Source: an uncultured bacterium
GTDB taxonomy: Bacteria; Fermentibacterota; Fermentibacteria; Fermentibacterales; JCC-6
Length of the DNA: 64,000 bases
Direction: 5' to 3'
Assembly: GCA_964624405.1 (NCBI GenBank)
Contig: CAZUXA010000010.1
Location: forward strand, 5,263 to 69,262
Below, in pieces: positions 2,400 through 61,221 of this stretch (the first letter of the stretch is position 1; each line of letters starts with the position of its first letter). The translations under genes were made by a program, and so were the position numbers. The notes under the pieces were generated by a model that ran no database searches, had not been told where the DNA came from, and worked only from the letters and a program-made list of their open reading frames with translations.

Positions 2400-2635
2400 G
2401 GGTTTCCTCGCTTGGTTTTCGGGGGGGTTTGACCCCGCCCTGGTTAGGGGGTAATATATGCCCATGGGGGCCATCGTCTGAGAGTGCGATTAGGTTACTG
2501 ATGAAGGCTTCGCCCCACCGTGTCGCTGGCGCCCCCCAGGGAAGCCTGGCAGACCGGTCGGCCGTGTAAGGCCTTTAACCCTTGCTTGCGAATCATTCGT
2601 CAGCCCTGGCCCCCTCCCATTACATCGGAGGGGTG

Positions 2636-3523
2636 ATGCGCCACAACGGAACAGAGAGGTCCCCTTCGGACCGGCTTGACATCTTCTGGCTGTTCATAAC
2701 CGGCGGTTACGCCGTTCTGATGTCGGCCATTCCATACATTCGCCTGGTTCCCAGGTTTCCCGTTCTGCTTCCCATCTGGGCGGTGTTCGCCCTTCTTTAC
2801 CGGTGGAACCGGCTTCCCCGCTGGAGCCCGATGCTGGTGAGCTTCGCCTTTCTGGGGCTGTGCTACTGGGCGCTTCGATTCACTGTTACAACATGGAGCG
2901 GCGTCTTCAACGGCATGAATGTGGCGGTATTCGAAGAGCGGATTTTCGGCGTTCTGCCTCCGGTATGGCTGCAGGAGAAAATGGGTTGCCCGGGCCATAC
3001 CCGGTGGTTCGACTACTTCTTCGCCGGGCTTCATGCATCGTTCTTTTTCATACCGCTGCTCACCCCGTTTCTGGCGTGGCGCAGAAACGGCGACGCCGGA
3101 ATGCGCCGTGCGGTTACCTCCTTCGCCCTGCTGACCACCATCGGCTATGCCACCTATGTGCTCTGGCCCCTCACGCCTCCCTGGATGCAGACACTGGAAG
3201 GCGGAGTTCCCCCAATCGACCGCTGCATGTTCCGGGCGCTCACCGATTTCATGCCAGGCTTCCTGGTGGGAAACTTCTCCATGAGCCCAAGGGCCGCCAT
3301 GCCCTCGCTTCACGCCGCGGTTCCCATGCTGATGACCCTGGTTCTCATCCGGGAGCTTGGATTCCGGCGAAGCTGGTGGACGCTTGTAATCCTCTCGGGA
3401 ATCAGTTTCGAGATTCTCTACGGCGGCGAGCACTACGCCACGGATGTGGTGGTGGGCTATCTATACGCTCTGGCGGCCTATCTTGCCGTGTTCCTTCCCA
3501 GGCGGTTCCATACCCGGGTTTAA
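2636..3523 (+). CDS. PAP2-superfamily membrane phosphatase/phosphotransferase (PAP2_3, AUR1-like)
   Basis: ORF 2582..3523 trimmed to the ATG at 2636, which is preceded by GGAGGGG. Polytopic. Carries PAP2 C2/C3 motifs PSLHAA and GGEHYATDVVVG. Confidence 0.7.
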   Translation: MRHNGTERSPSDRLDIFWLFITGGYAVLMSAIPYIRLVPRFPVLLPIWAVFALLYRWNRLPRWSPMLVSFAFLGLCYWALRFTVTTWSGVFNGMNVAVFEERIFGVLPPVWLQEKMGCPGHTRWFDYFFAGLHASFFFIPLLTPFLAWRRNGDAGMRRAVTSFALLTTIGYATYVLWPLTPPWMQTLEGGVPPIDRCMFRALTDFMPGFLVGNFSMSPRAAMPSLHAAVPMLMTLVLIRELGFRRSWWTLVILSGISFEILYGGEHYATDVVVGYLYALAAYLAVFLPRRFHTRV

Positions 3524-6028: not shown

Positions 6029-6619
6029 ATGTCTGCCAGAACAGTTGCCATCGACATAGAGAAGCCCTCTCCGGACGCTGTGAAAATGGCGGTGTCGGTT
6101 CTGACCGGAGGGGGGCTCACCATTTACCCCTCGGATACCGTCTACGGGGTTCTCTGCCCGGCGGCCATGCAGCACTCGGTAAGAAGAGTGGCAAGGCTGA
6201 AGGGGTACACCGAGGAAAGGCCTTTCATCCTTCTGGTTCCATCAATCGAGGACGCCCTGATTTACTCGAAGCCGGTCCCGGGAGCCTTGGAAGCCATGCA
6301 ATCCCACTGGCCCGGCCCGGTGACCCTGATCCTTCCCGCCTCGGACAGGGCGCCCTCGTGGGTCTGCGCTCCGGACGGGTCCGTTGCTCTCCGGGTTCCC
6401 TCAGACCCGCTTTCCATAAAGATACTCGAGTGGGTCATGCCCCTGTTGACCACCAGCGCCAACATCCGCGGGGGGATGGAGCCTTTGGGCCTGGACGAGG
6501 TAAGCCTGAAACTGGCTTCCGGGGTTGACCTGATGCTTGACGGGGGAAAGCTGGCAACCAGGAAAACCAGCACCATGATTCGTGTTACCGAGGAAGGCCT
6601 GGAAGTTATTCGTCCCTAA
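6029..6619 (+). CDS. tsaC: L-threonylcarbamoyladenylate synthase (YrdC/TsaC/Sua5 family)
   Basis: ORF 5948..6619 trimmed to the ATG at 6029 (MSARTVAID). Motifs YPSDTVYG, PGPVTLIL, ALRVPS and TSANIRGG. Confidence 0.85.
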   Translation: MSARTVAIDIEKPSPDAVKMAVSVLTGGGLTIYPSDTVYGVLCPAAMQHSVRRVARLKGYTEERPFILLVPSIEDALIYSKPVPGALEAMQSHWPGPVTLILPASDRAPSWVCAPDGSVALRVPSDPLSIKILEWVMPLLTTSANIRGGMEPLGLDEVSLKLASGVDLMLDGGKLATRKTSTMIRVTEEGLEVIRP

Positions 6620-8712
6620 GCGGTAAGGGCGGTCCATAACACCCTGAGAAGGCTTTTCGGGTGAAGCAGGATGTTGGAGTAGGCCTGGTTCGCCAGGGGA
6701 CAGGCGCATTCCTTCCTTCTGATCGATCTGCGGATCGCCGCCGCCTCCCGTGATTTCCAGATGTCCAGAAAATCCGATTGATCTCCCACGGAACCCATCT
6801 CGCCCCGGTACGCCAGTATGGCGCACGGCCAAACACCGCCGTCGGCGTTGATGTGAACATTGAGCAGGGCCGCGTAGCAGGGTATGACCTGGGTCCGGGT
6901 TCGAAGGTATTCGGTGACGATATCGTAATACACCAGCCTCAGCGCGGTGGTGATTCTGGAAAGGATGTTCATTCCCTTCATGCGGCTTCTCACCGCTCTC
7001 TTGAATACCTCCATGATTTCGCCGTAGCGTTCTCCTTCCGGGGTGATCCCGCTGCCGATGTTGAAGAACTCCTCTCTTTCCTCCGCGACTTCGTTGATGT
7101 AGGTGTCCACCCCCAGGGTTCCGGCGAACTCGATGATTTCCCCGAGCTTGTGAACATTGAAGCGGGAGATCACGGTTCCCACTCCAACATGAAGGTACCT
7201 GCTGGTTTCCCTTAGCTTCTTCAGCCGTTCCAGAGTGTCGATGAGTCTGTGGAAATTGCCGGGAACTCCCCGCAGAAGGTCGTGAGCCTCACCCACGCCG
7301 TCCATGCTGGGTTTGATGGTGAGAACCGTTCCCGGCGCTTCCTCGGCGATTATGCCCAGGATCTCCCGGGTCATGGTTTCAACCCGCTCCGGCGCCAGGG
7401 CATTGGTTGGAATGTGGATCACCGCGGGACGAAGGTGCCTGCAGGCAAGCCTGATGATTTCCGGAAGATCCTGCCTGAGAAAGGGTTCACCACCGGATAC
7501 ATTGAAGAAGTAGGTCCAGCCCACGGAGCGGAACAGGGATTCGATCATCGGCAGGGAAAGCTCGTCCTTCCGGTTTTGGTGGTGCTTCCAGATGAAGCAT
7601 GTGCTGCACCGGGACTGGCAGTTCCGGGTGACGGAGAATGTGACATTGATGGGCTTGGGAGCCCCGGCAAGACCCAGCCTGGCCCACCACGCCCGGGCAA
7701 CGCTGAGGGAGAGGTGAAAGAGCTGGCTTCCGTGGTTCATCTGGACGGGGAAATGCCTGTAAAGAGCCTGATGCACAACGGCGGAAAGGGCGTAAGCGCT
7801 CTCCACCGCCATGAGCAGAAGCCTCTGGCCCAGGGCGATGGCGGTGGCCACCACCATGCCTCCCGGAACGAAACTTGCAACCATCAGCGCCTGCACCGAC
7901 TCCCTCACCCCGAGTCCCCCGGGAATGAACACCATCAGAAGAGAAGCGAGCCAGGCCGCGGGACCGGAGAGAACGCAGAGTATCACCATGGCGTGTGCCG
8001 GGGAGGATTCAGGCACCCCGAAGCCCCGGAACCAGAAGTAAAGCCCCAATCCCCGCAGGGACCAGGACAGAATGTGGCTGCCGATGAACTGCGCCTGATG
8101 CCTGTGGCTGATGTGGGGAAGCTCGTCTACGCTGGTGCCCAGCCTGTGGGCGAACTTTCTGGCGAAAAGCCTTTGAATCCCCGGCGCCATCAGCATGAGA
8201 ACCCCCAGCCCCCCGGAGATCCAGAGGGCGGCGGTAAGCGCCGGTGGAAGCAGCGAAGTGTTTACGAACGGCAGGGATAACAGCGTAAGAAGACCAAGGG
8301 CAGCAAGAAGATATATGTTTTCGAGCACCATGGCGCTGGCCGCCTTGACCGAGCCCGCGCCGTTTCGGTTCAGGAACGCTATTCTGCCCAGCACCATCCA
8401 CACCCGCCCGGGGATGTAGCTGCCCATCTGGGTCAGGAACCAGTTCCGTCGAAGCTGGCCCCGGTCTATTCTGGGAGTTTTCAGGGCGTGAATGATTCTC
8501 TGCCATGCAAGGGGGGCGAAGTAGTAGCCCGCCGCGAGAAAGAGAACGGAAAGCACCAGGTAGAACCAGTCCGCCCTGCCGCCGGCTTCCTCCCAGAAAG
8601 CCGTGAGGCGGGGTTTCCAAACCGGGTAGAGGCTCAATCTGAAATAGACCGCCGCTCCCAGCAGAAGAAGCGGCCCCAGCCATGCTTCCGCTTTCTTCAG
8701 AAGGGGTTTCAC
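6616..8712 (-). CDS. Fusion protein: N-terminal flippase-like (LPG_synthase_TM/UPF0104) membrane domain + C-terminal radical SAM domain with SPASM/twitch-like Cys cluster
   Basis: ORF 6616..9213 trimmed. Codons upstream of 8712 overlap the YfhO gene and look non-protein-like. The GTG at 8710-8712 overlaps the YfhO stop (GTGA). The N-terminal ~325 aa are polytopic with YIPGRVW and PGGLGVRE. The C-terminal part has CQSRCSTC (CX3CX2C, 7597-7620), VSGGEPFL, and a distal cluster IPCY...GGVWPCA...ECACP. Confidence 0.8.
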   Translation of the reverse strand: MKPLLKKAEAWLGPLLLLGAAVYFRLSLYPVWKPRLTAFWEEAGGRADWFYLVLSVLFLAAGYYFAPLAWQRIIHALKTPRIDRGQLRRNWFLTQMGSYIPGRVWMVLGRIAFLNRNGAGSVKAASAMVLENIYLLAALGLLTLLSLPFVNTSLLPPALTAALWISGGLGVLMLMAPGIQRLFARKFAHRLGTSVDELPHISHRHQAQFIGSHILSWSLRGLGLYFWFRGFGVPESSPAHAMVILCVLSGPAAWLASLLMVFIPGGLGVRESVQALMVASFVPGGMVVATAIALGQRLLLMAVESAYALSAVVHQALYRHFPVQMNHGSQLFHLSLSVARAWWARLGLAGAPKPINVTFSVTRNCQSRCSTCFIWKHHQNRKDELSLPMIESLFRSVGWTYFFNVSGGEPFLRQDLPEIIRLACRHLRPAVIHIPTNALAPERVETMTREILGIIAEEAPGTVLTIKPSMDGVGEAHDLLRGVPGNFHRLIDTLERLKKLRETSRYLHVGVGTVISRFNVHKLGEIIEFAGTLGVDTYINEVAEEREEFFNIGSGITPEGERYGEIMEVFKRAVRSRMKGMNILSRITTALRLVYYDIVTEYLRTRTQVIPCYAALLNVHINADGGVWPCAILAYRGEMGSVGDQSDFLDIWKSREAAAIRRSIRRKECACPLANQAYSNILLHPKSLLRVLWTALTA

Positions 8713-10970
8713 GGGATTCTTCGCTTTTTGCCGGGAATCAGAAGCAGTGCCAGCGCCAGCAGCACCGCTGCAATCGAAACCCGCAACCCCAGCGTCACAT
8801 CGGAGGTGTCGTAGTGGAACCGCACGGTGTTGTCGCCCGGAGGAAGGATCACCGCCCTCATCCATCCGTTTGCCAGATGGATGTCCGCCGGCAAGCCGTT
8901 GACATCTGCCCTCCAGCTGGGATACCAGGAATCCGCCAGAACCAGCACGGAAGCGGTAGCGGACCCGGTTCGAACCACAACCTCGGTGGGGTTGTCCAGA
9001 GTTATCTCCGCGGTGCCGGAGCAGGCCGGCGGAACGGTTTCCAGCGGGGAGTCTATGATGGAAACGGTCATGGGATTCAAACCCCGGGCCAGAGCCTGAA
9101 ACCCCTGCTCGCCGGTGCCGCTTACGGGCTGGGCCGGGATGAACGCCCTGGGCATGGGGTTGATCGGGAGGTCTGGGGTTCCTTCCGAAAGCGCGGGATG
9201 AATGTCCCTCCATGAAAAAGTGCCCTCGGGCAGCCGGAAGGCGCTGATACCGAATGAGTACAGCACTTCCGGCGTGGCGCTTCCGAGAAGAGGGGCCATT
9301 CTGTCGGTTATCGCAGGCTTCGCGGCATGGTAGCCGGTGACGGAGCGGACACCCAGGGGAACCAGTTCGTTGCCCCCGGGAAACACCCTTCCCGGGCCGG
9401 CGGTCTCGACCAGATTCCGGTCAGGCGGGAACATGCTGTCCAGTGATGTGTGATGGAGATAGACCTGAAAGCTTCTGTTGAAGGGGATCAACTCGAGGGC
9501 GGTTATCGCCGTCACCGCCAGAGCGGCGTGAATGGCCCGGAGGTTGTGTTTCCACGCCAGGAACAGCGCAAGCAGAACCCCGGAGGAAGACAGAAGGGCT
9601 CTGAACAGATCCTTCTCCAGAAGCGAAACCCGGTGGCGGACCATGAATTCGAATCCGGCGCCGCCGGGCACACCCATCCTGGTCCACCATGAAGATTGAA
9701 GGGCTCTGCCGAGGGGTTCGGCGGATATCAGCATGAGCAGAAACAGCGCCACCGGCGCCCCGAAGGTTAGTACCATCCTTTTCGACGGCTTCCCGCGGAA
9801 CAGAACATCAAAACCGGGGCCTGAGGCTAACGCCACCGATGTCGCGGTGATGAAAGCCGCCATGTGGGGAGCCCTTATCTTTCTGAAAACGGGTATGACA
9901 TCGTAGAGTATTCTGAACAGAGGAGTGTAGCCCCCCCATGAGACCACCGCGCCCAGAACCGCAAGGGACAGCAGCGCTCCCCGGACTTTTTTGTCTTTTC
10001 CCGAAGCGAACCCCGCCAGTGCCAGCAGGAACACCGCCACGCCGGTAAACTCACTGCTGAGCCGAAGCCCCAGCCTGCCGAAATACACCGGAACTCCCGA
10101 GATTGAGCTGTCCGGGAAGCCGTGCCTGAGGCCGAAGGCGGAGGGGAGGATCATTGCGAAGGTTTCCTCCGGGGGCATGGAGTAGCTGGCGGCGGTGGCG
10201 GGATCCAGCCCGTCACCCCTGGTGGAATGCCGGCTGAAGAGGTATCCGGGGTAGAGCTGAACCGCGGATACCGCCACTCCCAGGGCCATTATGGCCCCCA
10301 AGCCGGAGATCTTCCACCACCATTGCCGGATAGAGCCCAGGTGCCAGAGGGCGAAGACCGATGCCGCCACCCCGGAGTAAAGCAGCATCTGTGGATGGCT
10401 GGAGAGCCCCTGCATTCCCACCGCCAGCCCGCCGACTCCAAGCCATTTTGCCCGGCGGGTCTGGTTGAACCGGTTCACTCCGTAGAGAAGCAGGGGAAGA
10501 AACGCCCAACTGATGACCTTGCTGCCGTGACCGGCGTAGAACAGCGTGTTGGCCCACGCTCCCAGGGCGTAGGCAGTTGCCCCGACAAGCCTTCCTCCTC
10601 TGGAGACCCCGATGGAACCCATGAAGAGCCAGGTGAAGAAGCCCGCCAGGAAAAGGTGCGCGGGAAAGAGGAAACGGATCGCCGCCTCTGAACCGAAGAG
10701 AATCATGGGAAGACCCCGGAGGGGGTAGAAGACCGGAGCGCTGAAGGATGCGTAGAAGGGAACGCCGCAGTAAATGTAGGGGTTCCAGTGGGGAAGCTGG
10801 CCCTGTCTCAGGGAAGCCTCGATGAAGGAGAAGAACGGATATCCCTGGTGGATTGTGTCGCTCATTTCACCACCGGGAAGCCGGAGCGATGTGAATATCG
10901 GCCAGTAGACCAGCACCGAAAGAAGCGTTACAAAGCCCAGAATTGCCGCGGTTTCACTGGGTTTCTTCAT
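8709..10970 (-). CDS. YfhO-family GT-C-type membrane glycosyltransferase
   Basis: 753-aa ORF. N-terminus DTIHQGYPFFSF...LPHWNPYIYCGVPFYASF. Many hydrophobic helices, then a soluble C-terminal region and a terminal TM helix (IAAVLLALALLLIP). The ATG at 10970 overlaps the upstream gene by 17 nt. Confidence 0.75.
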   Translation of the reverse strand: MKKPSETAAILGFVTLLSVLVYWPIFTSLRLPGGEMSDTIHQGYPFFSFIEASLRQGQLPHWNPYIYCGVPFYASFSAPVFYPLRGLPMILFGSEAAIRFLFPAHLFLAGFFTWLFMGSIGVSRGGRLVGATAYALGAWANTLFYAGHGSKVISWAFLPLLLYGVNRFNQTRRAKWLGVGGLAVGMQGLSSHPQMLLYSGVAASVFALWHLGSIRQWWWKISGLGAIMALGVAVSAVQLYPGYLFSRHSTRGDGLDPATAASYSMPPEETFAMILPSAFGLRHGFPDSSISGVPVYFGRLGLRLSSEFTGVAVFLLALAGFASGKDKKVRGALLSLAVLGAVVSWGGYTPLFRILYDVIPVFRKIRAPHMAAFITATSVALASGPGFDVLFRGKPSKRMVLTFGAPVALFLLMLISAEPLGRALQSSWWTRMGVPGGAGFEFMVRHRVSLLEKDLFRALLSSSGVLLALFLAWKHNLRAIHAALAVTAITALELIPFNRSFQVYLHHTSLDSMFPPDRNLVETAGPGRVFPGGNELVPLGVRSVTGYHAAKPAITDRMAPLLGSATPEVLYSFGISAFRLPEGTFSWRDIHPALSEGTPDLPINPMPRAFIPAQPVSGTGEQGFQALARGLNPMTVSIIDSPLETVPPACSGTAEITLDNPTEVVVRTGSATASVLVLADSWYPSWRADVNGLPADIHLANGWMRAVILPPGDNTVRFHYDTSDVTLGLRVSIAAVLLALALLLIPGKKRRIP

Positions 10971-11877
10971 GGTTCACTTCCTTCCCGGCTCTCTTCAGGG
11001 TTCCGGCGGTAACCATGGCAAGGGCTATCTCCCATATTGTCATGATTATGCGCTGCCCTCCCGCGGCGGCCACCGCCGGGGCGAGAAACTCGACGGGCAA
11101 CGCAATCAGCGCCGCGGCAGCTTCCCTGACTCCCAGCCCGCCGGGCACCAGAACCACAATATACGCCGCCAGCCAGGAAAGGGGCGCTGCGGCAAGGCAT
11201 CTCATCAGCCCCGCCTCGTTGAGGCCCATACCCCGGAACCAGGCCCAGAGGGCCACACCCCTGATGATCCATGTGGCAGTGTAGAAAAGCGTCACCTTCG
11301 CGGAATGCTTCAGCGGAACCGGTTTGAAGGTGATCCCCCTGGCCCGGAACACCATCCTCTGCAGGGGGTTCAGCAGCGGCAGAAGGGCCACCGCGACACC
11401 AGCCGCGGTGACAGACCATCGGATGGCGGGGCTGGAGGTGATGCCCGGGTGAAAAACGCTTACGCCGAAGGCCACTATTCCCACCGCGGCGGTGCTGAAG
11501 AGCAGTTCCAGCATCAGGGTCGAAGCGGCCCTGGCCATGGTGTAGCCCCTTGCCTTCAGAAGGGCAACCCTCCCCGCGAAAAGCCAGACCTTGCCCGGTA
11601 TGAAACGCCCGAGCTGACTGCTGAACCAGACCGCGTACAGCTCCCTTCGCCCCAGGGTGACTCCCCTTTGCCTGCAGACCATTACCCACCCCTCAGGTGA
11701 CAGGGCAAGGCCGACAAGAAGCACCAGCGACGAAATGATCAGAAGCGGCGGATTGAGTTCCCAGGGGAACTCCCGGGCGCTTTCAAGCCATTCCCCGCCC
11801 TTCAGCCAGACATGGCGTCCCACCAGAAGAAGAAGAAGCAGAAAAGCAATCCTTATCCAGAATACCGGCTTTTTCAA
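10954..11877 (-). CDS. Flippase-like membrane protein (LPG_synthase_TM/UPF0104 family)
   Basis: 307-aa polytopic ORF with FIPGKVW and VPGGLGVRE motifs. The TTG start at 11877 overlaps the epimerase stop (TTGA). Confidence 0.75.
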   Translation of the reverse strand: MKKPVFWIRIAFLLLLLLVGRHVWLKGGEWLESAREFPWELNPPLLIISSLVLLVGLALSPEGWVMVCRQRGVTLGRRELYAVWFSSQLGRFIPGKVWLFAGRVALLKARGYTMARAASTLMLELLFSTAAVGIVAFGVSVFHPGITSSPAIRWSVTAAGVAVALLPLLNPLQRMVFRARGITFKPVPLKHSAKVTLFYTATWIIRGVALWAWFRGMGLNEAGLMRCLAAAPLSWLAAYIVVLVPGGLGVREAAAALIALPVEFLAPAVAAAGGQRIIMTIWEIALAMVTAGTLKRAGKEVNHEETQ

Positions 11878-12758
11878 AGCAGCCCCTTTCCGCGGTACCA
11901 GGAGACCGCCTCTTCAGCCGCCTCGCGGAAGGGATGGCGGGCGGTGAAACCGGCTCCGGCGGCCTTCTTCACGGAAACGAACCTGTCGGTTCCGAAGAGG
12001 CGCAGCCGGCTTCCGGACAGCGGTTTCGGGCAAAGGGGCCCAAGGGAAAGGGCCGCCCTGAAAAGACAGCGGGGTACCGGGAGCACGAACACTCCTCTTT
12101 CCATGGCCGCCGCCACGGTTTTCGCCACATGTTTCATGGATAGAACCTGAGGCCCTCCGATGTTGAAGACTCCCCCTGCGAGAATCCCTCCCGGTAGGGC
12201 GGCGGCCACACCCCGGCATACATCCCGGATGTGGGTTGGTCTGGTTCTTCCGCCTTCCCTGCCCACCACCGGAAACCAGCCCCGGGCCACCTGCCGAAAG
12301 AGGGCGAGCTTGTGCCGGTCTCCGGCTCCGAATACGAAGTCGGGCCGGAGTATGGTCAGCCTGTCAGCGGGAAGGCCCAGAACCTGAAGCCGGTGCTCGC
12401 CCTGGGCCTTGGTCTGCTCGTACACGCCCCCGGGATTCGGGGGTGAATCTTCCCTGCCGTCGGGCAGAAGCCCGCACACACCCGGAGTGCTGATGTGAAT
12501 CATTGAAATGCGGTGGTCAAGACACTGTCTTCCGAGAAGTTCCGGAAGAAGCGCGTTTGCCTCCAGCACTGCTTCCGCTGAAACTCCCGGTGCCGCCAGC
12601 CTTCCCGCGGCGTTGACAACCGCGTCAGCGTCTTCCGGGACGGTAACCGCCCCCCCGGATCTTCCAGGGTGCGAAACCACCAGGTGGCCCAGCCCGGTCA
12701 GGTGATCCTGAACGGCTTTGCCTATGAATCCTCCGGTTCCGGTGACGAAAACCCTCAT
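11874..12758 (-). CDS. NAD-dependent epimerase/dehydratase (extended SDR)
   Basis: ORF 11874..12920 trimmed to MRVFVTGTGGFIGKAV (ATG at 12758, ATGA overlap with the GT4 stop). Rossmann GTGGFIG and catalytic YEQTK. Confidence 0.8.
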   Translation of the reverse strand: MRVFVTGTGGFIGKAVQDHLTGLGHLVVSHPGRSGGAVTVPEDADAVVNAAGRLAAPGVSAEAVLEANALLPELLGRQCLDHRISMIHISTPGVCGLLPDGREDSPPNPGGVYEQTKAQGEHRLQVLGLPADRLTILRPDFVFGAGDRHKLALFRQVARGWFPVVGREGGRTRPTHIRDVCRGVAAALPGGILAGGVFNIGGPQVLSMKHVAKTVAAAMERGVFVLPVPRCLFRAALSLGPLCPKPLSGSRLRLFGTDRFVSVKKAAGAGFTARHPFREAAEEAVSWYRGKGLL

Positions 12759-13849
12759 TGAAGCCCTTCCAGCAAACTCCCGGCATACAGCTCCCATGAA
12801 AACCTTGCTGCGTGGCGGGCCACCCTCTCGCTCAGGCCGGGGTTCGACAGCAGCGAACCGCAACGGATGACGGCGTCCGCCAGGGATTCCGGATCGGGAA
12901 CGGCGACCTCGCCGGTGCAACCGGGTTTCACGGTTTCCGCCAGACCTCCCACATCAGTGACCACCATTGGCTTCCGGAAAGCAAGGGCTATCTGCGCGAC
13001 TCCGCTCTGGGTGGCGGTAACATACGGAAGAACCACGATGTCCGCGGCCTGGAAGTACAGGCCCACCCTGGAGTCGGGAACGAACTCCCTGTGCCGGATG
13101 AATCGGTTTCCCAGCGGAGCGCTGAGAGCTTCGAGTTCGTCCTCCCGACCGTAGTTCTCACCCACCGCCAGTAGAACATGGTTCTCCGGAAGTGATTCCA
13201 TCGCCTTTATCAGCAGATCAAGCCCCTTGTACTTCCTGACCAGCCCGAAGAAAAGAAGAACCACCCGATCTTCGTCCAAGCCCAGCATTTCCCGGGCTTC
13301 AGCCCTGGATGAAGCCCCGGGCCGGTACTGGTCGTAAATGGGGTGGAAGAGGTCGACCACCTTTTTCCCCCACCTTCGGGCTCTCTCCCCGTCATCCTTT
13401 CCATGGACAACGATGATTTGCGCTCTTTTCTCCATGAACCGACGGGTGAGGATTCCGGACAGGGGAAACCCTTCATGGGGTGTCAGATTGTGGCAGACCG
13501 CCGCGGTCGGAAGCCCGTCGGGCAGTGAGGCCGAAAGGCAGGGGGCGAAAAAGGGGTGCCACCATTGAACAACTGCGGCGTCGCATTTCAGCGATGAAAC
13601 CGCCCGTTTCGTCGCTGGCCAGGACAGAAACGCGGTTGGATGGAGAAGACGAAGGCTTTCAGGGGCAGATGGCGCACCCGGGGGCTCATACTGGGTTTTT
13701 CCGGGAAAGAGCAGCCCGGGGTAGAGGGTGCGGAAGTTGACCCGGCGCACACTGTGACCGCCCCTTTCGAAGGTTTCCGCAAGCCGGCTGTTGAACTGGG
13801 CTATTCCCCCCCGGAAAGGTGGAAACGGACCCAGAAGGCAGATCTTCAT
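12755..13849 (-). CDS. Glycosyltransferase family 4 (GT-B fold)
   Basis: MKICLLGPFPPFRGGIAQF N-terminus. C-terminal sugar-donor motif SGVAQIALAFRKPMVVTDVGGLAETV. ATGA overlap with the GT2 stop. Confidence 0.8.
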   Translation of the reverse strand: MKICLLGPFPPFRGGIAQFNSRLAETFERGGHSVRRVNFRTLYPGLLFPGKTQYEPPGAPSAPESLRLLHPTAFLSWPATKRAVSSLKCDAAVVQWWHPFFAPCLSASLPDGLPTAAVCHNLTPHEGFPLSGILTRRFMEKRAQIIVVHGKDDGERARRWGKKVVDLFHPIYDQYRPGASSRAEAREMLGLDEDRVVLLFFGLVRKYKGLDLLIKAMESLPENHVLLAVGENYGREDELEALSAPLGNRFIRHREFVPDSRVGLYFQAADIVVLPYVTATQSGVAQIALAFRKPMVVTDVGGLAETVKPGCTGEVAVPDPESLADAVIRCGSLLSNPGLSERVARHAARFSWELYAGSLLEGLQ

Positions 13850-14802
13850 TCAGTTCTTTCGACGGGGTTCGCCGGCCTGTTGACGCTGAAACGGAGGATC
13901 ATCTCGCCCAGAAGGCCCATGGATATGAACTGGAACCCGGCCAGCATCAGGAGCACCCCGAAAAGGAGCAGGGGCCTGTTGCCTATGGCGTCTCCGGAAA
14001 ACCACAGGAAAGACAGGTAGGCGTTGATGGCGAAACCCGACAGGGTGAGTATTGTGCCGATCCCTCCGAAGAAATGCAGGGGGCGAAAGGAGTAACGGTT
14101 GAGAAACAGAACGGTAAGCAGATCGCTGTAGCCCCGGAAATATCTGGCCCATCCGTATTTGCTTTTTCCGTAGAGCCTGGGCCGGTGGTTCACCGGAACC
14201 TCGCCGACCCTGAAACCGTTCATGGCCGCCAGCACTGGAGTGTACCTGTGCATCTCACCGTAGAGGTCAAGGGTTGTCGCGGCGTCTTTTCTGTACACCT
14301 TCAGGCCGCAGTTGAAATCGTGAAGGTTGATACCGGTGGCCCGCCTAACCACGGAGTTGAAAAAACGCGAGGGAACCGTTTTGTCCGCCGGATCTCTTCT
14401 CACCTTTTTCCAACCGCTGACCAGGTGGTAGCCGTTCTCCTGGGCGTAGGCCACCATTCCCGGTATCTCTCCCGGGTCATCCTGCAGGTCGGCGTCGAGG
14501 GTTACCAGCCAGTCCCCCCGGGCTTCCCGGATACCCGCCGCCAGAGCCGCCGCCTTGCCCTGATTTTTGCCGAACCGCAGCCCAGTGAGTGGGTATTGGG
14601 CTGCAAGGCTTACGATCGTGTTCCAGGTTTGGTCGGTACTGCCGTCGTCTACGATGATCGCGTCCCACCTGAAGCCCCGGAGGGCTTCGCTTATCTCAAG
14701 CATCAGCTCCCGCAGGCTCAGTTCCTCGTTCAGTGCCGGTATCACCAGTGTCAGGGCTGCTTCAGCCTTCAAAACGCTCAAGCGATGGTATCCCTTCTTC
14801 AA
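13846..14802 (-). CDS. Polyprenyl-phosphate glycosyltransferase, GT2 (GtrB/ArnC/DPM1-like)
   Basis: LVIPALNEE, IIVDDGSTD and LDADLQDDP motifs, plus a C-terminal TM pair (FFGGIGTILTLSGFAI, LLFGVLLMLAGFQFISMG). The start is uncertain: TTG at 14802, or an in-frame TTG at 14772 that shortens the overlap with lpxH to 11 nt. Confidence 0.8.
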   Translation of the reverse strand: MKKGYHRLSVLKAEAALTLVIPALNEELSLRELMLEISEALRGFRWDAIIVDDGSTDQTWNTIVSLAAQYPLTGLRFGKNQGKAAALAAGIREARGDWLVTLDADLQDDPGEIPGMVAYAQENGYHLVSGWKKVRRDPADKTVPSRFFNSVVRRATGINLHDFNCGLKVYRKDAATTLDLYGEMHRYTPVLAAMNGFRVGEVPVNHRPRLYGKSKYGWARYFRGYSDLLTVLFLNRYSFRPLHFFGGIGTILTLSGFAINAYLSFLWFSGDAIGNRPLLLFGVLLMLAGFQFISMGLLGEMILRFSVNRPANPVERTE

Positions 14803-15481
14803 CTTTCAAGTATGTGAATGAGCTTATCCAGTCGCCAAGCGAAACATGAACACCGCCGGGCATGGAAGCCACCCTGGGAACATGGGTGTGCCCTGTGACC
14901 ACCAGGTCCGCGGTTTGAAGCTGCTTCCCGGCCCAGGCCTCCAGATGCGCCGGAATGGTGCGAACCTGTTTCCGAAGGATTTTCCGGCTGGTGTCGCTGA
15001 AGAGCATCGCGAACCATGTGGCGGTGGTGGGATGCAGCAGGGAGAACAGCCGGCGCGAAACCCGGGCCTTCAGAATCGGTTTCAGGGCCCTGTAGCCCCA
15101 ATCCCCGGGACCGAGGCCGTCGCCGTGGGCGAGAACCGCGGCGAGGCCGTCGAAACTGGCCCTGAACGGGGTTTCGCGGTGTATCTGAAACCCCGTTTCC
15201 CGGCAAAACAGCCGGCCCACCCACCAGTCGTGGTTGCCGGGAATGAAGTGCATGGTCCATCCTGATTCGGACAGCCGTCGGAACCCGTGAAGTACGGTTC
15301 CGTACCCGCCGGGACAAACCCCCCGGTATTCGAACCAGTAATCGAAGAGATCACCCAGAAGCCAGAGGTTCATTGGCTTCCTGTCCGCCAGGTTCACCAG
15401 GAAGCGAAGAAGAGTTGCCCTTCCCGGGTGTTCATCCCATTCCGGGAACAGGTGGGCATCGCTTAGGAGGATGTGGGTCAT
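14762..15481 (-). CDS. lpxH: UDP-2,3-diacylglucosamine diphosphatase
   Basis: ORF 14762..15511 trimmed to MTHILLSDAHL (ATG at 15481, ATGA overlap with the upstream stop). Metallophosphoesterase motifs SDAHL, LGDLFDYW, GNHDWW and GHTH are collinear with E. coli LpxH. Confidence 0.75.
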   Translation of the reverse strand: MTHILLSDAHLFPEWDEHPGRATLLRFLVNLADRKPMNLWLLGDLFDYWFEYRGVCPGGYGTVLHGFRRLSESGWTMHFIPGNHDWWVGRLFCRETGFQIHRETPFRASFDGLAAVLAHGDGLGPGDWGYRALKPILKARVSRRLFSLLHPTTATWFAMLFSDTSRKILRKQVRTIPAHLEAWAGKQLQTADLVVTGHTHVPRVASMPGGVHVSLGDWISSFTYLKVEEGIPSLERFEG

Positions 15482-15972
15482 CGGGAGTCCCGGAGAACCC
15501 TCTGGGCGCACCCCATGCCGGTTGCTCGGAAAACCGTACCCCCGGGCAGAACCAGAACCGCCAGGGGAAGCATTTCCACATCCATGAAAGCCAGAAGGCT
15601 GTCGTCGCCAAGGTAGACCGCCAGGGGCAGGCCAAGCCTGTTCATCCGGCGCTGGGCCGCGTTTCTGGTGACGGGGTCGAACTGAACCGGAACGGGCAGC
15701 ACGGCTTCACCGGCCAAAGCCGCCATGAACAACAGATCCGGGTCGTTATGGTCGCAGTTTTCCAGAGGAATCCAGAGGTAGAGCAGAATACCCTGAAGGG
15801 CTTCGGTTTCCAGGGGGATGAAGCCTGCGGAATCGGGCCGATGCAGCGTGCCGGGAAGCTCCAGAACCGGGTCGGGTTCGGCTTCGGTGACAACCTGGTG
15901 ATCAGGCTCTCCGCATCCGGAGAGGGACAGGACAATCCCGGCGGGCAGCAGAAGGCGCCGGAGGATTCTCAA
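15478..15972 (-). CDS. Lipoprotein with thioredoxin-like (TlpA-like) fold pattern but no CXXC
   Basis: Part of ORF 15478..16230. TTG at 15970-15972 overlaps the upstream stop (TTGA), with GGAGAA upstream. Lipobox LSLSGC. LLYLWIPLENCDHN occupies the position where redoxins carry WxxWCxxC. Confidence 0.55.
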   Translation of the reverse strand: MRILRRLLLPAGIVLSLSGCGEPDHQVVTEAEPDPVLELPGTLHRPDSAGFIPLETEALQGILLYLWIPLENCDHNDPDLLFMAALAGEAVLPVPVQFDPVTRNAAQRRMNRLGLPLAVYLGDDSLLAFMDVEMLPLAVLVLPGGTVFRATGMGCAQRVLRDSR

Positions 15973-16223
15973 GGGTTTTCTCCGGGGATCACGGTGAATG
16001 ACTCGTGGCCCGCAAAGTAGGCAGAACCCGAAACAGTGACGAGCAGGGTGTCGGTTCCGGTGACCAGAAGGCTTTCCGGGGCCAGAAAGTGCCTGCCGGG
16101 GCCAAGAACAACTGCCAGAGCCTCTATCTCGCTTTGGGAGTCGATGGTGGACGCCGGCGCGGAAAACAGCAGGGGCATAACGCAACAGATGGCCGCTGAC
16201 GAGAGGAGAATCACCTTTTTCAC
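15969..16223 (-). CDS. Small secreted protein (signal peptide), first gene of the operon
   Basis: 84-aa ORF with a GTG start and GGAGG 10 nt upstream. N-terminus MKKVILLSSAAICCVMPLLFSAPAS looks like a Sec signal peptide. Confidence 0.5.
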   Translation of the reverse strand: MKKVILLSSAAICCVMPLLFSAPASTIDSQSEIEALAVVLGPGRHFLAPESLLVTGTDTLLVTVSGSAYFAGHESFTVIPGENP

Positions 16224-16366
16224 CGTTCAAAAACCTCCGCGTACGGGTGCAGCCATGTGTTCATCCCGGGAAAACTATGAATCCCGGCTCCATTCCGCAA
16301 TAGCGCACGACTTGATTCCCGGCGGGCCGATGAATAGCTTTGATACCTCCCTGGAAAAGGAATGCC

Positions 16367-38799: not shown

Positions 38800-40155
38800 T
38801 CATTTCCCCCGATTGAGCATTTCCCGCAGAACCCTGTTGTGGGCGGCGAAGGCCAGGGGTGGAGCTTCGTTCGGGGGCATCCACATCACTTCCGAGGCGT
38901 CATCCCCGGGAACCGGTTCACCTTCAAGGCCTTCCGCACGGAAAACGAAGAGGGCCACGCCCCCGTAGGCCGTGCAGTCACTGTCCGAGCCCTCGAGCAC
39001 CATCGAGGTCGCCTTCAGGCCGGTTTCTTCCATCAATTCCCGCCGGGCGCACTCTTCCGGTGATTCGCCCAGATCCATGAATCCACCGGGAAGACAGAGT
39101 TCTCCCCTGCCGGGGGCGAACGCCCGTCTTACCAGCAGGATTCTGCCCTCAGGGTCACCGGCGACTATCATCACCGCCGGTAGCGGGTTTCTGTAGAAAA
39201 CAAGGCCGCAGGCCGGGCAGTTTCTATGGCCTGCGGTCCCCAGCAGGCCTTCTCCGCAGGCGGGGCAGAAACGGGGCTCCGCGTAGAAGCCTGTGGTGTT
39301 TCGAGGTTTGGGGCCTGGACCCATGCCGGGCAGATGGCCAATAAGGTACCCTCCGTTTCTGAGAAAGCCGTCGCGAATCGCTGCCCGCAGGTACCTCAGG
39401 GCACCATCCACCGATTCCGCCACACCGTGCCCTCCGGCCATCAGCGCCGCGCAGGCTGATGCAAGGGTGCATCCCGTGCCGTGAACCTTCCCCGGGACGA
39501 GCCGTTTTCCCGGGAACAGCCTTGCTCCGTCCCGGGTAACCAGAACATCGCAGGGTTCTCCCGGAAGATGGCCCCCCTTGATGAGCACGGCACCGGCGCC
39601 CCGGTCCACGAGAAGCCTGCCGGCGGTCTCCATTTCCTCCCTGTTTCGCACCCCTTTTCCGGTCAGCGCCTCAGCCTCGTCAAGATTGGGTGTCAGAAGC
39701 CCGGCCCCGGGAACGAGAAGCTTGAGAATCGATTCGGAAAGCCCTCTCCGGGAAAGGCTGTCACCGCTGCCGGAGACCAGTACCGGGTCGACCACCAGGG
39801 GGGCCGGTGAGATCCGGCTGCGATAGATATCGGCGGTAACCTCCACCGCTTCCACTCCGCCGAGCATGCCGGTCTTCATTCCGTGCAGCGGCCCGTCGTC
39901 GCAGAGAACCAGCATCTGGTCATGAAGCTGCCGGGGAGTGACCGGGCTCCAGGAGTGAACCCTTCCGGAATCCTGCACTGTTAACGCGGTTATCGCGAAA
40001 CAGCCGTGGGCGCCCATGGCCGCCACAGCCTTGGCGTCTGCGAACAGGCCGGCTCCGCCGCTGGGGTCGGTTCCCCCAACCAGAAGCACCTGAGGTCTGC
40101 CGCCCCCCCTCGCCAAACATGCGGTGTCTGTGTTAGTTTTACAGTATGCGTTCAT
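38800..40155 (-). CDS. thiD: Fusion protein: hydroxymethylpyrimidine/phosphomethylpyrimidine kinase (ThiD) + Zn ribbon + Nudix hydrolase
   Basis: ThiD part has GGTDPSGGAG and VHGTGCTLASA. Zn ribbon CPACG...CPACG at 39211-39267. Nudix box GGFMDLGESPEECARRELMEETG at 39019-39087. Start uncertain: the ATG at 40155 overlaps the divergent tamA start, and an in-frame GTG at 40089 is an alternative. Confidence 0.8.
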   Translation of the reverse strand: MNAYCKTNTDTACLARGGGRPQVLLVGGTDPSGGAGLFADAKAVAAMGAHGCFAITALTVQDSGRVHSWSPVTPRQLHDQMLVLCDDGPLHGMKTGMLGGVEAVEVTADIYRSRISPAPLVVDPVLVSGSGDSLSRRGLSESILKLLVPGAGLLTPNLDEAEALTGKGVRNREEMETAGRLLVDRGAGAVLIKGGHLPGEPCDVLVTRDGARLFPGKRLVPGKVHGTGCTLASACAALMAGGHGVAESVDGALRYLRAAIRDGFLRNGGYLIGHLPGMGPGPKPRNTTGFYAEPRFCPACGEGLLGTAGHRNCPACGLVFYRNPLPAVMIVAGDPEGRILLVRRAFAPGRGELCLPGGFMDLGESPEECARRELMEETGLKATSMVLEGSDSDCTAYGGVALFVFRAEGLEGEPVPGDDASEVMWMPPNEAPPLAFAAHNRVLREMLNRGK

Positions 40156-59804: not shown

Positions 59805-60238
59805 AGGAAACAGATCAGATAAGCTCTCTAACCGCAGCTCTGGCTCGAAGGGTCACTTCCCTGTCCGAGCTGCACGCCAGGGGGGTTGTAACCGGAGAGC
59901 TTCTGGGCAAACAGCTTCTGAAGCTGTTGTGCAGCCCGGATGCCAGAAAACTGAGCCAGCACTCCATTGAACCGGACTCCAAGGCGCTCAGGATTCTATA
60001 TCGGCTGGAACACCCCGAAGGATGGCGAAGAAAATCGGGTCTCAACCGGGACGAAAGACTGGCAGATTTATTGGTTGATCTCGAGGCGATAACCGGTTCC
60101 GACATCTCTCCTGAAGATAAGCTTCAAAGCATGCTGTCAATCGCGTGCCTTCCATTTTTCAAGGGATTTGTAAATCCCCGGGGTTCCCCCGGCGGCAAGG
60201 AATCCAAACCCTCAAGCCGTGTCAGCGTTCTGGACTGA
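59801..60238 (+). CDS. Hypothetical protein
   Basis: 145-aa ORF with an ATGA overlap with the hflX stop. No motif I recognise. Confidence 0.5.
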   Translation: MKETDQISSLTAALARRVTSLSELHARGVVTGELLGKQLLKLLCSPDARKLSQHSIEPDSKALRILYRLEHPEGWRRKSGLNRDERLADLLVDLEAITGSDISPEDKLQSMLSIACLPFFKGFVNPRGSPGGKESKPSSRVSVLD

Positions 60239-60240
60239 GA

Positions 60241-61221
60241 GTGCCACCCTCCCCGGCAACCAGACAGCGTCTTGTAACCCTTGCCGGGTTTGTTTTCGTC
60301 GGGGCCTCCCTTTACTTCCTGTGTCTGTCCATGGCCAGGGGAATCCGGGAGAGCGGTGGCATCGGAAACCTGCTCAACTTGAACCTCGGGCTGTTTCTCC
60401 TCTCCTTCGCCGTGCTCCAGATTCACCTCATCACCTGCGGATGGTCGTGGCGGAGTGTCGCCCGGCTCACCGGCGGCAGGCTCGGGTTTTGGAAGTCGTA
60501 TTCCATTCATTTTCTTGCTCAGGTGGGAAAGTACATCCCCGGCAAGGTTTGGGCCGCCATTGGCAAGTACGCTCTTTCCTGCGACTCCGGCATGACAAAA
60601 ACACAGACCGGCCATGCCCTGATTCTTGAGACGGTGTTCATCGTCTTCGGCTGTCTTCTGACGGCGATGCCCCTGGTTCCTTCAGCGGCCCGTGCCGCGG
60701 GAATGAACGGCATGGGAGCCGTGGGTCTTGCGGTACTGCTGGGGCTGGTCACGATTTCCGCGGCGCATCCGGCGGTTTTCGGTTTTTTTCTCGGTATCGC
60801 CTCCCGATTAACCGGAAAAAAAATGGATTTCCAGAGGACGGCGTTTCCCAGGGTTCTTCAAATCATTCCGGTCTACCTCGTTGTGTTCGTTACTCTGGGG
60901 ATCGGGTTCTGGCTTCTGGCACTCAGTTTCGGCCTCAGGATTCCCGTCTTTCCCGGAGTGTTCCTGTACCCCACCGCAATGGGTATCAGCTATCTGGTTG
61001 TCTTTGCTCCGGGAGGGCTTGGTGTGCGGGAACTGGTTCTGGTCTGGCTGATTCGAATGGTGGCCCCCGGGGCTGAACCCGGAATGGCGGAACTCGTGGC
61101 CCTGGCCGGCAGGTTGTGGGTAACGATCGGGGAAGTCATGGCTTTCATGATCTCGCTCTCCCTCTACGGAACAAGCACCGGCAATATCATACGGATGTTC
61201 TCAAGGCGGGGAACTACCTGA
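60241..61221 (+). CDS. Flippase-like membrane protein (LPG_synthase_TM/UPF0104 family), third copy in the window
   Basis: ORF 60145..61221 trimmed to an in-frame GTG at 60241, just after the upstream stop. Motifs YIPGKVW and APGGLGVRE. Polytopic. Confidence 0.7.
   Translation: MPPSPATRQRLVTLAGFVFVGASLYFLCLSMARGIRESGGIGNLLNLNLGLFLLSFAVLQIHLITCGWSWRSVARLTGGRLGFWKSYSIHFLAQVGKYIPGKVWAAIGKYALSCDSGMTKTQTGHALILETVFIVFGCLLTAMPLVPSAARAAGMNGMGAVGLAVLLGLVTISAAHPAVFGFFLGIASRLTGKKMDFQRTAFPRVLQIIPVYLVVFVTLGIGFWLLALSFGLRIPVFPGVFLYPTAMGISYLVVFAPGGLGVRELVLVWLIRMVAPGAEPGMAELVALAGRLWVTIGEVMAFMISLSLYGTSTGNIIRMFSRRGTT

Follow-up and report, generated by a model that had tools for sequence, protein, structure and literature searches.

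Proteins of the UPF0104 family (LPG_synthase_TM, PF03706) are predicted flippases of lipid-linked sugars and glycolipids, and they are known as fusions with enzymes in MprF and AglD (PMC5898192; preprint 10.1101/2022.03.11.483950). In MprF, the enzyme domain makes a modified lipid that the N-terminal domain translocates (PMC5898192), and in the gpgSDF operons a family 4 glycosyltransferase (GT4), a deacetylase and a UPF0104 protein produce modified glycolipids (PMC12713373). A survey of UPF0104 counts 148 architectures; of the about ten partner types that its text mentions, none is a radical S-adenosylmethionine (SAM) enzyme (preprint 10.1101/2022.03.11.483950). Alteration of a lipid-linked sugar before its export is also known, being performed by the deformylase ArnD, by the short-chain dehydrogenase/reductase (SDR) ORF13, by DprE1/DprE2 homologues and, in mycobacteria, by the oxidase DprE1 together with the SDR-type reductase DprE2 (PMC11127046). 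Here we analyse a gene in which a UPF0104 domain is fused to a radical SAM enzyme. It occupies positions 6616..8712 on the minus strand of a 64,000-nucleotide stretch of DNA, hereafter the window (contig CAZUXA010000010.1, positions 5,263 to 69,262, assembly GCA_964624405.1), from an uncultured bacterium of the phylum Fermentibacterota. This fusion is a real and conserved, but lineage-specific gene of Fermentibacterota. We tentatively suggest, while admitting that it may well prove otherwise, that it is the last cistron of a three-component envelope glycosylation operon spread over the whole phylum, in which the radical SAM domain would remodel a lipid-linked sugar and the fused membrane domain would export it.

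The first-pass annotation of the window described one uninterrupted open reading frame (ORF) of 699 codons at 6616-8712; the codon count and the coordinates are right, and the coding strand is the minus one, since the plus-strand translation of this segment is riddled with stops. From stop to stop the minus-strand frame extends from 9213 to 6616, which gives 865 amino acids (aa) if counted from an ATG. A GTG start at 8712, sharing the letters GTGA with the TGA of the upstream gene, yields a product of 698 aa, to be compared with 694-711 aa in the homologues. Because the homologues have this length, the 167 codons that are open 5' of the GTG (8713-9213, minus strand) and lie wholly inside the preceding gene for a glycosyltransferase of the GT-C fold (10970..8709), in another frame, are most likely an artefact of high GC content rather than an N-terminal extension. 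The product consists of a UPF0104/LPG_synthase_TM (PplT) domain, a linker helix, a radical SAM core and a twitch-like cysteine domain, as judged from the ORF, Pfam, the homologues and an AlphaFold2 (AF2) model with a pLDDT of 86.4 and a pTM of 0.79.

Both halves and the SPASM region, which had been proposed from the letters alone, score above the Pfam gathering thresholds in hmmscan: LPG_synthase_TM (PF03706) at residues 45-293 with 60.0 bits against 33.4, covering model positions 29-289 of 302; Radical_SAM (PF04055) at residues 360-529 with 43.7 bits against 29.5; and SPASM (PF13186) at residues 612-671 with 31.6 bits against 21.5. The motifs on which that proposal rested are all in place, namely SYIPGRVW (residues ~98-105), IPGGLGVRE (263-271), CQSRCSTC and VSGGEPFL (405-412), and the distal cysteine cluster is read as IPC612Y...GGVWPC630A...EC669AC671P. 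No curated NCBIfam family is reached by the fusion, nor by the GT-C protein or the stand-alone UPF0104 protein of the same operon.

A homologue search of 5.8 billion proteins revealed about 90 full-length clusters with the same three domains and 50-84% identity, and every named cluster belongs to Candidatus Fermentibacteria, Aegiribacteria or Sabulitectum. The window's organism shows about 80% amino-acid identity to Fermentibacteraceae MAGs. In a survey of one genome per GTDB species, relatives are encoded in 538 species genomes; the loci of the best 80 were inspected, about 60 of which span the whole fusion, and the named ones are all Fermentibacterota. At 50% clustering (338 clusters, E <= 1e-30) the fusion collapses to essentially one representative. 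The concern that the join might result from a frameshift or a chimeric assembly can be laid aside, because the same uninterrupted ORF with a conserved junction occurs in about 60 independently assembled genomes. A far more distant UPF0104-radical SAM fusion (P0111, 38% identity) is present on one metagenomic contig. In its locus (L008 743-4182) the gene order is different: a homologue of the GT-C gene (27% identity) comes after the fusion, not before it. The link between the fusion and the GT-C gene recurs in this second, distant fusion lineage. The first-pass annotation did not recognise the architecture as characterised, and we likewise found no description of it in the open-access literature; it is absent both from the UPF0104/PplT survey and from a 2026 review of lipid-modifying radical SAM enzymes.

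The N-terminal part of the fusion (7753..8712, minus strand; residues 1 to ~320) is a polytopic PF03706 domain with the motifs YIPG.VW and PGG.G.RE, and residues 3-320, which include hydrophobic segments, are all-helical in the AF2 model. Among 20 fusion orthologues, P101, G102, W105, G109 and R110 of the first motif region and P264, G266, G268 and E271 of the second are invariant. The two stand-alone flippase-like genes reported previously in the window do exist: one encodes a 307-aa protein of the operon (11877..10954, minus strand; PF03706, 45.6 bits) and the other a 358-aa protein with a long N-terminal extension (60145..61221, plus strand; 41.6 bits). All three paralogues have the signatures (Y/F)IPG(R/K)VW and PGGLGVRE unaltered, as claimed. 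The closest window paralogue of the fused domain is the UPF0104 protein of the operon (101 bits, E 1.2e-30 in phmmer, 32% identity). The gene at 60145-61221 is flanked by an HflX-type GTPase gene and a PmbA/TldD pair, with no glycosylation genes nearby.

Lysine- and arginine-rich parts of the fusion are the N-terminus, the loops 71-93 and 179-205, and the segment after the last transmembrane helix. By the positive-inside rule, both the N-terminus and the lead-in to the radical SAM domain are probably cytoplasmic. Chemistry with iron-sulphur clusters and SAM needs the cytoplasm, and for these two reasons we place the radical SAM domain at the cytoplasmic face. In a Foldseek search, the N-terminal domain matched MprF of P. 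aeruginosa (9goe, E 1.9e-4), and by analogy it may flip a lipid.

The radical SAM half carries the CX3CX2C motif (C365, C369 and C372; 7597..7620, minus strand), predicted to ligate the SAM-cleaving [4Fe-4S] cluster. An alignment of 39 homologues, of which 25 are fused and 14 stand alone, has seven invariant cysteines (C365, C369, C372, C612, C630, C669 and C671), so that just four are C-terminal. The SAM-binding motif of the GGE type (S406, G407, G408, E409 and P410) is invariant in the same set, as are the polar residues H433, K467, D471, H477, D478, R481, E541, R546, E548, R592, Y595, Y596, Q608, N618, H620, N675, Q676 and Y678. The C-terminal region (6700..6879, minus strand; residues 612-671, PF13186) has the form C612-X12-G-X4-C630 ... 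C669-X-C671. The seven-cysteine SPASM motif CX9-15GX4C ... CX2CX5CX3C ... C is absent, as there are four cysteines and no CX2CX5CX3C block. We call this domain twitch-like since that block is missing and four cysteines suffice for one cluster; the earlier label "SPASM/twitch-like" holds in its second half, while a full SPASM domain would need seven cysteines. From this pattern one auxiliary [4Fe-4S] cluster is expected, whereas a full SPASM domain has two.

A fold search of the PDB with the AF2 model returned SkfB, DesII, SuiB, anSME, CteB, BlsE, PqqE, viperin, MoaA, EpeE, BtrN and AbmM for the radical SAM half; DesII, BlsE, BtrN and AbmM among them are enzymes that modify sugars. The matches to SkfB, DesII, anSME, BlsE, PqqE, viperin and MoaA (E 1e-8 to 1e-4) agree with a partial TIM barrel; target-normalised TM-scores are 0.45-0.65 (0.62 for BtrN) at 12-21% identity. 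The best NCBIfam models for the fusion are TIGR03961, of archaeal type (63.9 bits, cut-off 306), and TIGR04053 (58 bits, cut-off 395). Two candidate memberships were tried and rejected. The first is the Tes / GDGT-MAS group, for which NF045702 gives 46 bits against a cut-off of 450 and the structure 7tol gives 27.7 bits over the core only. The second is the HpnJ/Cds type, for which TIGR03961 remains at the score just given and the Hpn models are not among the 25 best NCBIfam matches, the Cds sequence itself not having been compared. The analogy with the hopanoid proteins HpnL, HpnH and HpnJ, which had been drawn for this fusion, finds no support: no Hpn model is among the 25 best NCBIfam matches listed for it, the stand-alone paralogue matches no NCBIfam model at all, and no hopanoid gene occurs among the ~44 ORFs of the window that were scanned. 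With family scores so far under the cut-offs, the hopanoid and tetraether (Tes) leads were dropped.

The domain junction seems to preserve a trace of how the fusion arose. The ATG of M325 (7738..7740, minus strand) stands in the alignment exactly where the two domains meet, and it is likely the kept start codon of a once-separate radical SAM gene, an apparent "fossil". The junction reads M325-N-H-G-S-Q; an unfused orthologue in Fermentibacteraceae (locus L065) begins with (GTG)-N-H-L-K-Q, and the stand-alone homologues of other phyla begin with "MN..." at the alignment column of M325. It is this coincidence of N-termini that makes us see the junction as an old start codon. We saw no convincing Shine-Dalgarno sequence ahead of the internal ATG; internal initiation at M325, giving a free radical SAM enzyme, is possible. 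Two loci of Fermentibacterales, L065 (10118-11257) and L069 (7987-9132), hold the same operon with a separate radical SAM ORF of 379-381 aa, placed directly after the GT-C gene, and with a single UPF0104 gene. This unfused state may be either ancestral or the result of a secondary loss of the fused domain.

The fusion is the last of seven minus-strand genes, which encode, in order, an LpxH-like phosphoesterase, an ArnC-like family 2 glycosyltransferase (GT2), a GT4, an SDR, a UPF0104 protein, a YfhO-like GT-C protein and the fusion itself. Adjacent genes overlap by 4-41 nt, with GTGA and ATGA at three junctions, and therefore form a tightly packed co-directional operon. The order of the seven genes is kept throughout Fermentibacterota, in about 60 species genomes, the operon proteins showing 36-80% identity (tblastn against the 80 loci). 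The operon contains no GtrA, SMR or MATE gene, and the two UPF0104 modules would fill the role of the flippase.

Two glycosyltransferases of this operon bear directly on the nature of the substrate. The GT2 (13846..14802, minus strand; PF00535; start codon uncertain) is a full-length homologue of the ArnC structures 9bhc/8vxh (156 bits, E 1e-44) and of GtrB (5ekp, 92 bits), and this is why we assign it to the polyprenyl-phosphate glycosyltransferases of the ArnC/GtrB type. With the ArnC model NF007986 it scores 168.7 bits, under the cut-off of 529, so it is ArnC-type and not ArnC itself. The gene directly upstream of the fusion (8709..10970, minus strand) encodes a polytopic membrane protein of 753 aa, a divergent YfhO-like GT-C with an invariant D38 in its first loop. 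The window copy has no Pfam match above cut-off and reaches 14.5 bits to the YfhO C-terminus; 14 of 29 orthologues do match YfhO (PF09586), with a best E of 1.7e-8. The sequence profile of the protein matches nothing in the PDB, and fold comparison alone worked: by its AF2 model (pLDDT 83, pTM 0.86) the protein has the GT-C fold, the 25 best PDB fold matches being all GT-C enzymes, among them AftD, ArnT, PglB, EmbA/B/C, AftA, STT3, PMT, ALG3 and DPY19. G33, G34, S37, D38 and T39 (GG-x-x-SDT) are invariant among its orthologues. The suggestion that the substrate is probably membrane-embedded is strengthened by this pair of genes, because ArnC homologues and GT-C transferases both handle polyprenyl-phosphate sugars.

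The other products of the operon are less closely defined. The first conserved gene (14762..15511, minus strand; PF00149) encodes an LpxH-like metallophosphoesterase, for which the LpxH models give 83.8 and 81.3 bits, under their cut-offs of 134 and 190. The GT4 (12755..13849, minus strand; PF13692, PF00534), a GT-B enzyme, has MshA as its best NCBIfam match with 76 bits and reaches 48 bits with the GlcNAc-phosphatidylglycerol (PG) synthase model (cut-off 480), all under cut-off. The SDR (11874..12758, minus strand; PF01370, PF04321) is a 294-aa protein resembling NAD-dependent epimerases and RmlD-like reductases; it starts with MRVFVTGTGG, its ATG overlaps the GT4 stop as ATGA, and its PDB matches are generic SDR epimerases and dehydratases.

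Several features accompany the operon. In the Aegiribacteria and Fermentibacter branches (L006 1110-1890 and L007 1353-2160) it is preceded by genes for an extracytoplasmic function (ECF) sigma factor and a zf-HC2 anti-sigma factor and by two small ORFs, which hints at envelope-stress control in these branches. The branch of the window is without the sigma/anti-sigma pair and has instead an ORF of 250 aa with no Pfam match (16230..15478). A gene for a PAP2_3 membrane phosphatase (2582-3523, plus strand) lies ~3 kb from the operon end, and its place is kept in the three neighbourhoods for which genes were called (L005, L006 and L007); it adjoins panB, purD, purE and a Sua5/YciO gene, so that a lipid-phosphate role and mere synteny are both possible. 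In Aegiribacteria sp. MLS_C, a Y1 (IS200/IS605-type) transposase gene follows directly after the fusion (L006 12215-13225).

Relatives of the radical SAM half form a wide family that extends beyond Fermentibacterota. Stand-alone homologues with ~50% identity occur in Myxococcota, Bradymonadia, deltaproteobacteria, Planctomycetota, Clostridia/Christensenellaceae, Synergistota, Riflebacteria and DPANN archaea, and the majority of the family consists of proteins of ~390 aa that stand alone and have no transmembrane segments. The fusion therefore does not define the enzyme. In Myxococcota, Bradymonadia and deltaproteobacteria (L080, L082, L085 and L088) the radical SAM gene stands in the order GT2-radical SAM-GT4, and the two glycosyltransferases are 44-45% (GT2) and 38-39% (GT4) identical to the window proteins. 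A GT2 of 45-46% identity is also found near the gene in Nanoarchaeia (L071), in an unclassified archaeal genome (L072) and in Christensenella (L075), and GT2/GT4 genes lie close to it in DPANN archaea and Christensenella. The commonest neighbour of the stand-alone genes is a GT4 (13 of ~20 loci). The homologous operons encode GDP-mannose 4,6-dehydratase, SDRs, a DegT aminotransferase, a GT2-GtrA fusion, a pyruvyl transferase, class I methyltransferases, a Glu/Leu/Phe/Val-type dehydrogenase, an RGP-type enzyme and a polysaccharide deacetylase, the last one placed directly upstream of the radical SAM gene in Riflebacteria.

Rare family members are fused with a GT2 (P0251), a GT4-like domain (P0249, Sandaracinaceae), a WecG/TagA domain (P0252) or a GT-C-like PTPS_related membrane domain (P0187). 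One more member (P0138) is fused to an FAD-binding reductase domain, which suggests a built-in electron donor. These five proteins show 31-46% identity over the part of the radical SAM domain that is matched, which in four of them is the entire domain. Taken from gene neighbourhoods and fusions, these data point to a family that works with glycosyltransferases, several of which are lipid-carrier-dependent. The larger point beyond the fusion is this orphan, glycan-associated radical SAM family. One can suggest, albeit with considerable doubt, that it represents an unrecognised radical SAM class (~340 clusters at 50%, more than 500 species) which acts at the membrane surface on lipid-carrier-bound sugars and became fused to its exporter in Fermentibacterota; such a class would be an anaerobic, cofactor-independent counterpart of the DprE1-type oxidases.

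With UPF0104 as the candidate flippase, the operon would hold all parts of a three-component system, and UPF0104 is fused to cargo-making enzymes in MprF and AglD, which together suggest the following sequence of events. [quoted passage not shown] The radical SAM domain, sitting in the cytoplasm on an interfacial helix, would remodel the lipid-linked sugar, starting with the abstraction of a hydrogen atom. Most likely, the outcome would be oxidation to a keto-sugar, then reduction by the SDR of the operon. The sugar would thereby be epimerised or deoxygenated, by a counterpart of DprE1/DprE2 or AprD4/AprD3 that needs neither oxygen nor quinone. The UPF0104 domain of the same polypeptide would move the product to the periplasmic leaflet, as in MprF, and the YfhO-like GT-C enzyme would transfer the exported sugar to an envelope acceptor. 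We prefer oxidation and reduction to other reactions because the SDR is conserved in the operon, because homologous operons carry other keto-consuming enzymes instead (an aminotransferase or an amine dehydrogenase), and because, in fermentative anaerobes, a DprE1-type oxidase would have to be replaced by an enzyme independent of oxygen and quinones. This specific chemistry is conjectural.

A number of points weigh against the proposed pathway, each step of which is predicted from genes and models. The fold matches of the radical SAM half are generic for SPASM/twitch enzymes; as far as the models go, they fix the class but not the type of reaction. For the membrane domain, a hydropathy count does not give a clear number of membrane crossings near the two motif regions, and we relied on the lysine- and arginine-rich termini only; the match to MprF is weak (rank 44 in the fold search of the PDB), and the sequence profile of the domain matches no PDB chain. 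Lipid translocation by UPF0104 was shown experimentally for MprF only (PMC5898192; preprint 10.1101/2022.03.11.483950). The most constant partner of the family is GT4, not GT2, and the substrate could therefore be a product or acceptor of GT4, for example a glycoglycerolipid or a soluble intermediate. At the inspected loci outside Fermentibacterota no UPF0104 gene neighbours the radical SAM genes, and in two Fermentibacterales genomes the operon persists although the enzyme is unfused and UPF0104 is represented by one gene; thus the fusion is dispensable for the chemistry.

The prominence of GT4 leads to a different route, which we regard as rather unlikely. Here, the GT4 would glycosylate a glycerolipid, the radical SAM domain would rearrange the head group, and the fused UPF0104 domain would flip the lipid as MprF does. 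The GT4 could be GpgS-like and act on phosphatidylglycerol, the rearrangement could be a ring contraction to a cyclitol like that proposed for HpnJ and calditol synthase, and the second UPF0104 protein, the GT2 and the GT-C enzyme would serve a parallel decoration. Such a scheme agrees with the frequency of GT4 neighbours, with the fusion of a GT4-like domain to a family member (P0249) and with the deacetylase gene of the Riflebacteria locus. Known operons of GT4, deacetylase and UPF0104 genes yield glucosaminyl-PG (GlcN-PG; PMC12713373). Two UPF0104 modules per operon would also suit two lipid cargos. So far Cds and HpnJ are the sole radical SAM enzymes linked to the chemistry of lipid head groups, their proposed substrates being hexoses bound to lipids (PMC13459092), but the fusion does not belong to their type by the scores given above, and its GT4 stays well under the cut-off of the GlcNAc-PG synthase model. 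Moreover, the strict conservation of the ArnC-like GT2 and of the GT-C gene argues for a polyprenyl-phosphate sugar as the central intermediate.

It is also conceivable, but unlikely, that the radical SAM domain acts on a soluble precursor, a nucleotide sugar or a cyclitol, like BtrN, DesII and AprD4, and that the N-terminal domain is an anchor, a scaffold or an unrelated flippase. Most members of the family are, as described, soluble-looking proteins that stand alone, and an unfused enzyme is present even within Fermentibacterota; the homologous operons hold enzymes of nucleotide-sugar type such as GDP-mannose 4,6-dehydratase, together with SDRs and the DegT aminotransferase, and the structural neighbours DesII, BlsE and BtrN use soluble substrates. 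A mere anchor, however, would not be expected to maintain the motifs that are invariant in the UPF0104 family. Fusions to UPF0104 (in two lineages), GT2, WecG/TagA and PTPS_related domains appeared independently, and the helix which, in the fusion, links the radical SAM half to the membrane domain is retained at the N-terminus of the stand-alone proteins. If the substrate is soluble, our finding shrinks to a sugar-modifying enzyme that is otherwise ordinary and has been anchored in one lineage.

Chemistry on the lipid chain itself, i.e., C-C coupling or cyclisation as performed by Tes, GDGT-MAS, Grs and Mss, with the N-terminal domain delivering the lipid, seems highly improbable. The presence of a lipid-handling membrane domain and the weak core matches to Tes (NF045702) and GDGT-MAS (7tol) speak for it, but the Tes score is about ten-fold under the cut-off and covers generic core residues 358-444 only, the family sits in operons for glycosyltransferases and sugar modification rather than lipid synthesis, and its stand-alone members are not membrane proteins. 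Finally, an artefact of the ORF (a frameshift, a lost stop or a chimeric assembly) or a chance fusion with a maturase of ribosomally synthesised and post-translationally modified peptides (RiPPs), as the apparent former start codon, the unfused versions and the SPASM domain typical of peptide maturases might suggest, is hardly credible, given the uninterrupted ORF of 694-711 aa in ~90 protein clusters and ~60 species genomes from many studies and assemblers, the presence of just four of the seven SPASM cysteines, and the fact that no precursor-peptide or RiPP gene was noticed in the examined contexts, all of them glycan operons, with no dedicated search for small ORFs or RiPP recognition elements (RRE) made.

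Returning to the remodelling and export of a lipid-linked sugar, we found no report of a radical SAM step on polyprenyl-phosphate sugars or in three-component glycosylation in the open-access literature. If true, the proposal would describe the first radical SAM step in three-component periplasmic glycosylation and a second MprF-like "make-and-flip" machine based on unrelated chemistry. MprF-type fusions are the best evidence so far that UPF0104 moves the lipid made by its partner, and a second fusion with unrelated chemistry would test this idea; at the same time, it would offer a natural way to approach the substrate on which an orphan radical SAM family acts. The proposal would also add a new type of reaction to the envelope glycan diversification of strict anaerobes, including DPANN archaea, provide parts for glycoengineering and give a concrete statement on the cell surface of Fermentibacterota, a phylum which, to our knowledge, has no cultured member. 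A TamA (Omp85/POTRA) and TamB pair at 40146-45684 (plus strand) indicates that the organism is diderm, i.e., has an outer membrane. The remaining part of the window is of housekeeping nature and includes genes for a class II ribonucleotide reductase (RNR), DnaB, a RadA-like protein, an IspDF fusion, glycogen synthase, IMPDH and QueA.

Comparison with the described systems shows which features of the fusion are shared and which are its own. By its radical SAM core followed by a C-terminal cysteine domain, the enzyme half resembles BtrN, DesII, AprD4, BlsE, AbmM and HygY, and like BtrN it would have one auxiliary cluster. Its pairing with an SDR recalls AprD4/AprD3, and the pairing with an aminotransferase or amine dehydrogenase in the homologous operons recalls BtrN/BtrS. 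Unlike a member of these groups, it shares 12-18% identity with them and reaches no curated family model; the sugar and cyclitol enzymes of the twitch/SPASM type with identified substrates are known to act on soluble molecules. HpnJ and Cds carry no fused membrane domain, and the tests that were run show no sequence kinship between them and the fusion.

The operon as a whole may be likened to the three-component systems GtrA/GtrB/GtrC, ArnC/ArnD/ArnEF/ArnT and CsbB/GtcA/YfhO, to the pentofuranose systems (Kelly et al. 2024) and to the mycobacterial conversion of decaprenylphosphoryl ribose (DPR) to decaprenylphosphoryl arabinose (DPA) by DprE1/DprE2. As in these, a polyprenyl-phosphate GT2, a candidate flippase and a GT-C transferase are combined in one operon, here with an SDR. 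The differences are that the candidate flippases are two UPF0104 modules and not GtrA, SMR or MATE proteins, that the auxiliary enzyme is a radical SAM protein, and that a GT4 and an LpxH-like phosphoesterase are conserved in addition. With the AglD-type GT2-UPF0104 fusions and with GpgSDF/HexSDF, the locus shares the coupling of UPF0104 to enzymes which build or modify a lipid-bound sugar, and the neighbours of those systems also include GT-C-like transferases, GT4 enzymes and deacetylases. However, they are without radical SAM enzymes, and in the fusion the partner would modify the sugar, not attach it.

The closest parallel in organisation is MprF, in which an N-terminal polytopic PF03706 domain is likewise followed by a cytoplasmic enzyme domain; the domain order is the same, and so, probably, is the in/in topology. 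In place of the aminoacyl-transferase domain DUF2156 (PF09924), the fusion carries the radical SAM/twitch half, and after the membrane domain Pfam shows PF04055 and PF13186 only. Thus, tRNA-dependent chemistry is not expected, the context is that of glycosylation rather than of phospholipid aminoacylation, and no profile match to solved MprF is obtained. The fusion protein is therefore not MprF, though it may be organised like MprF.

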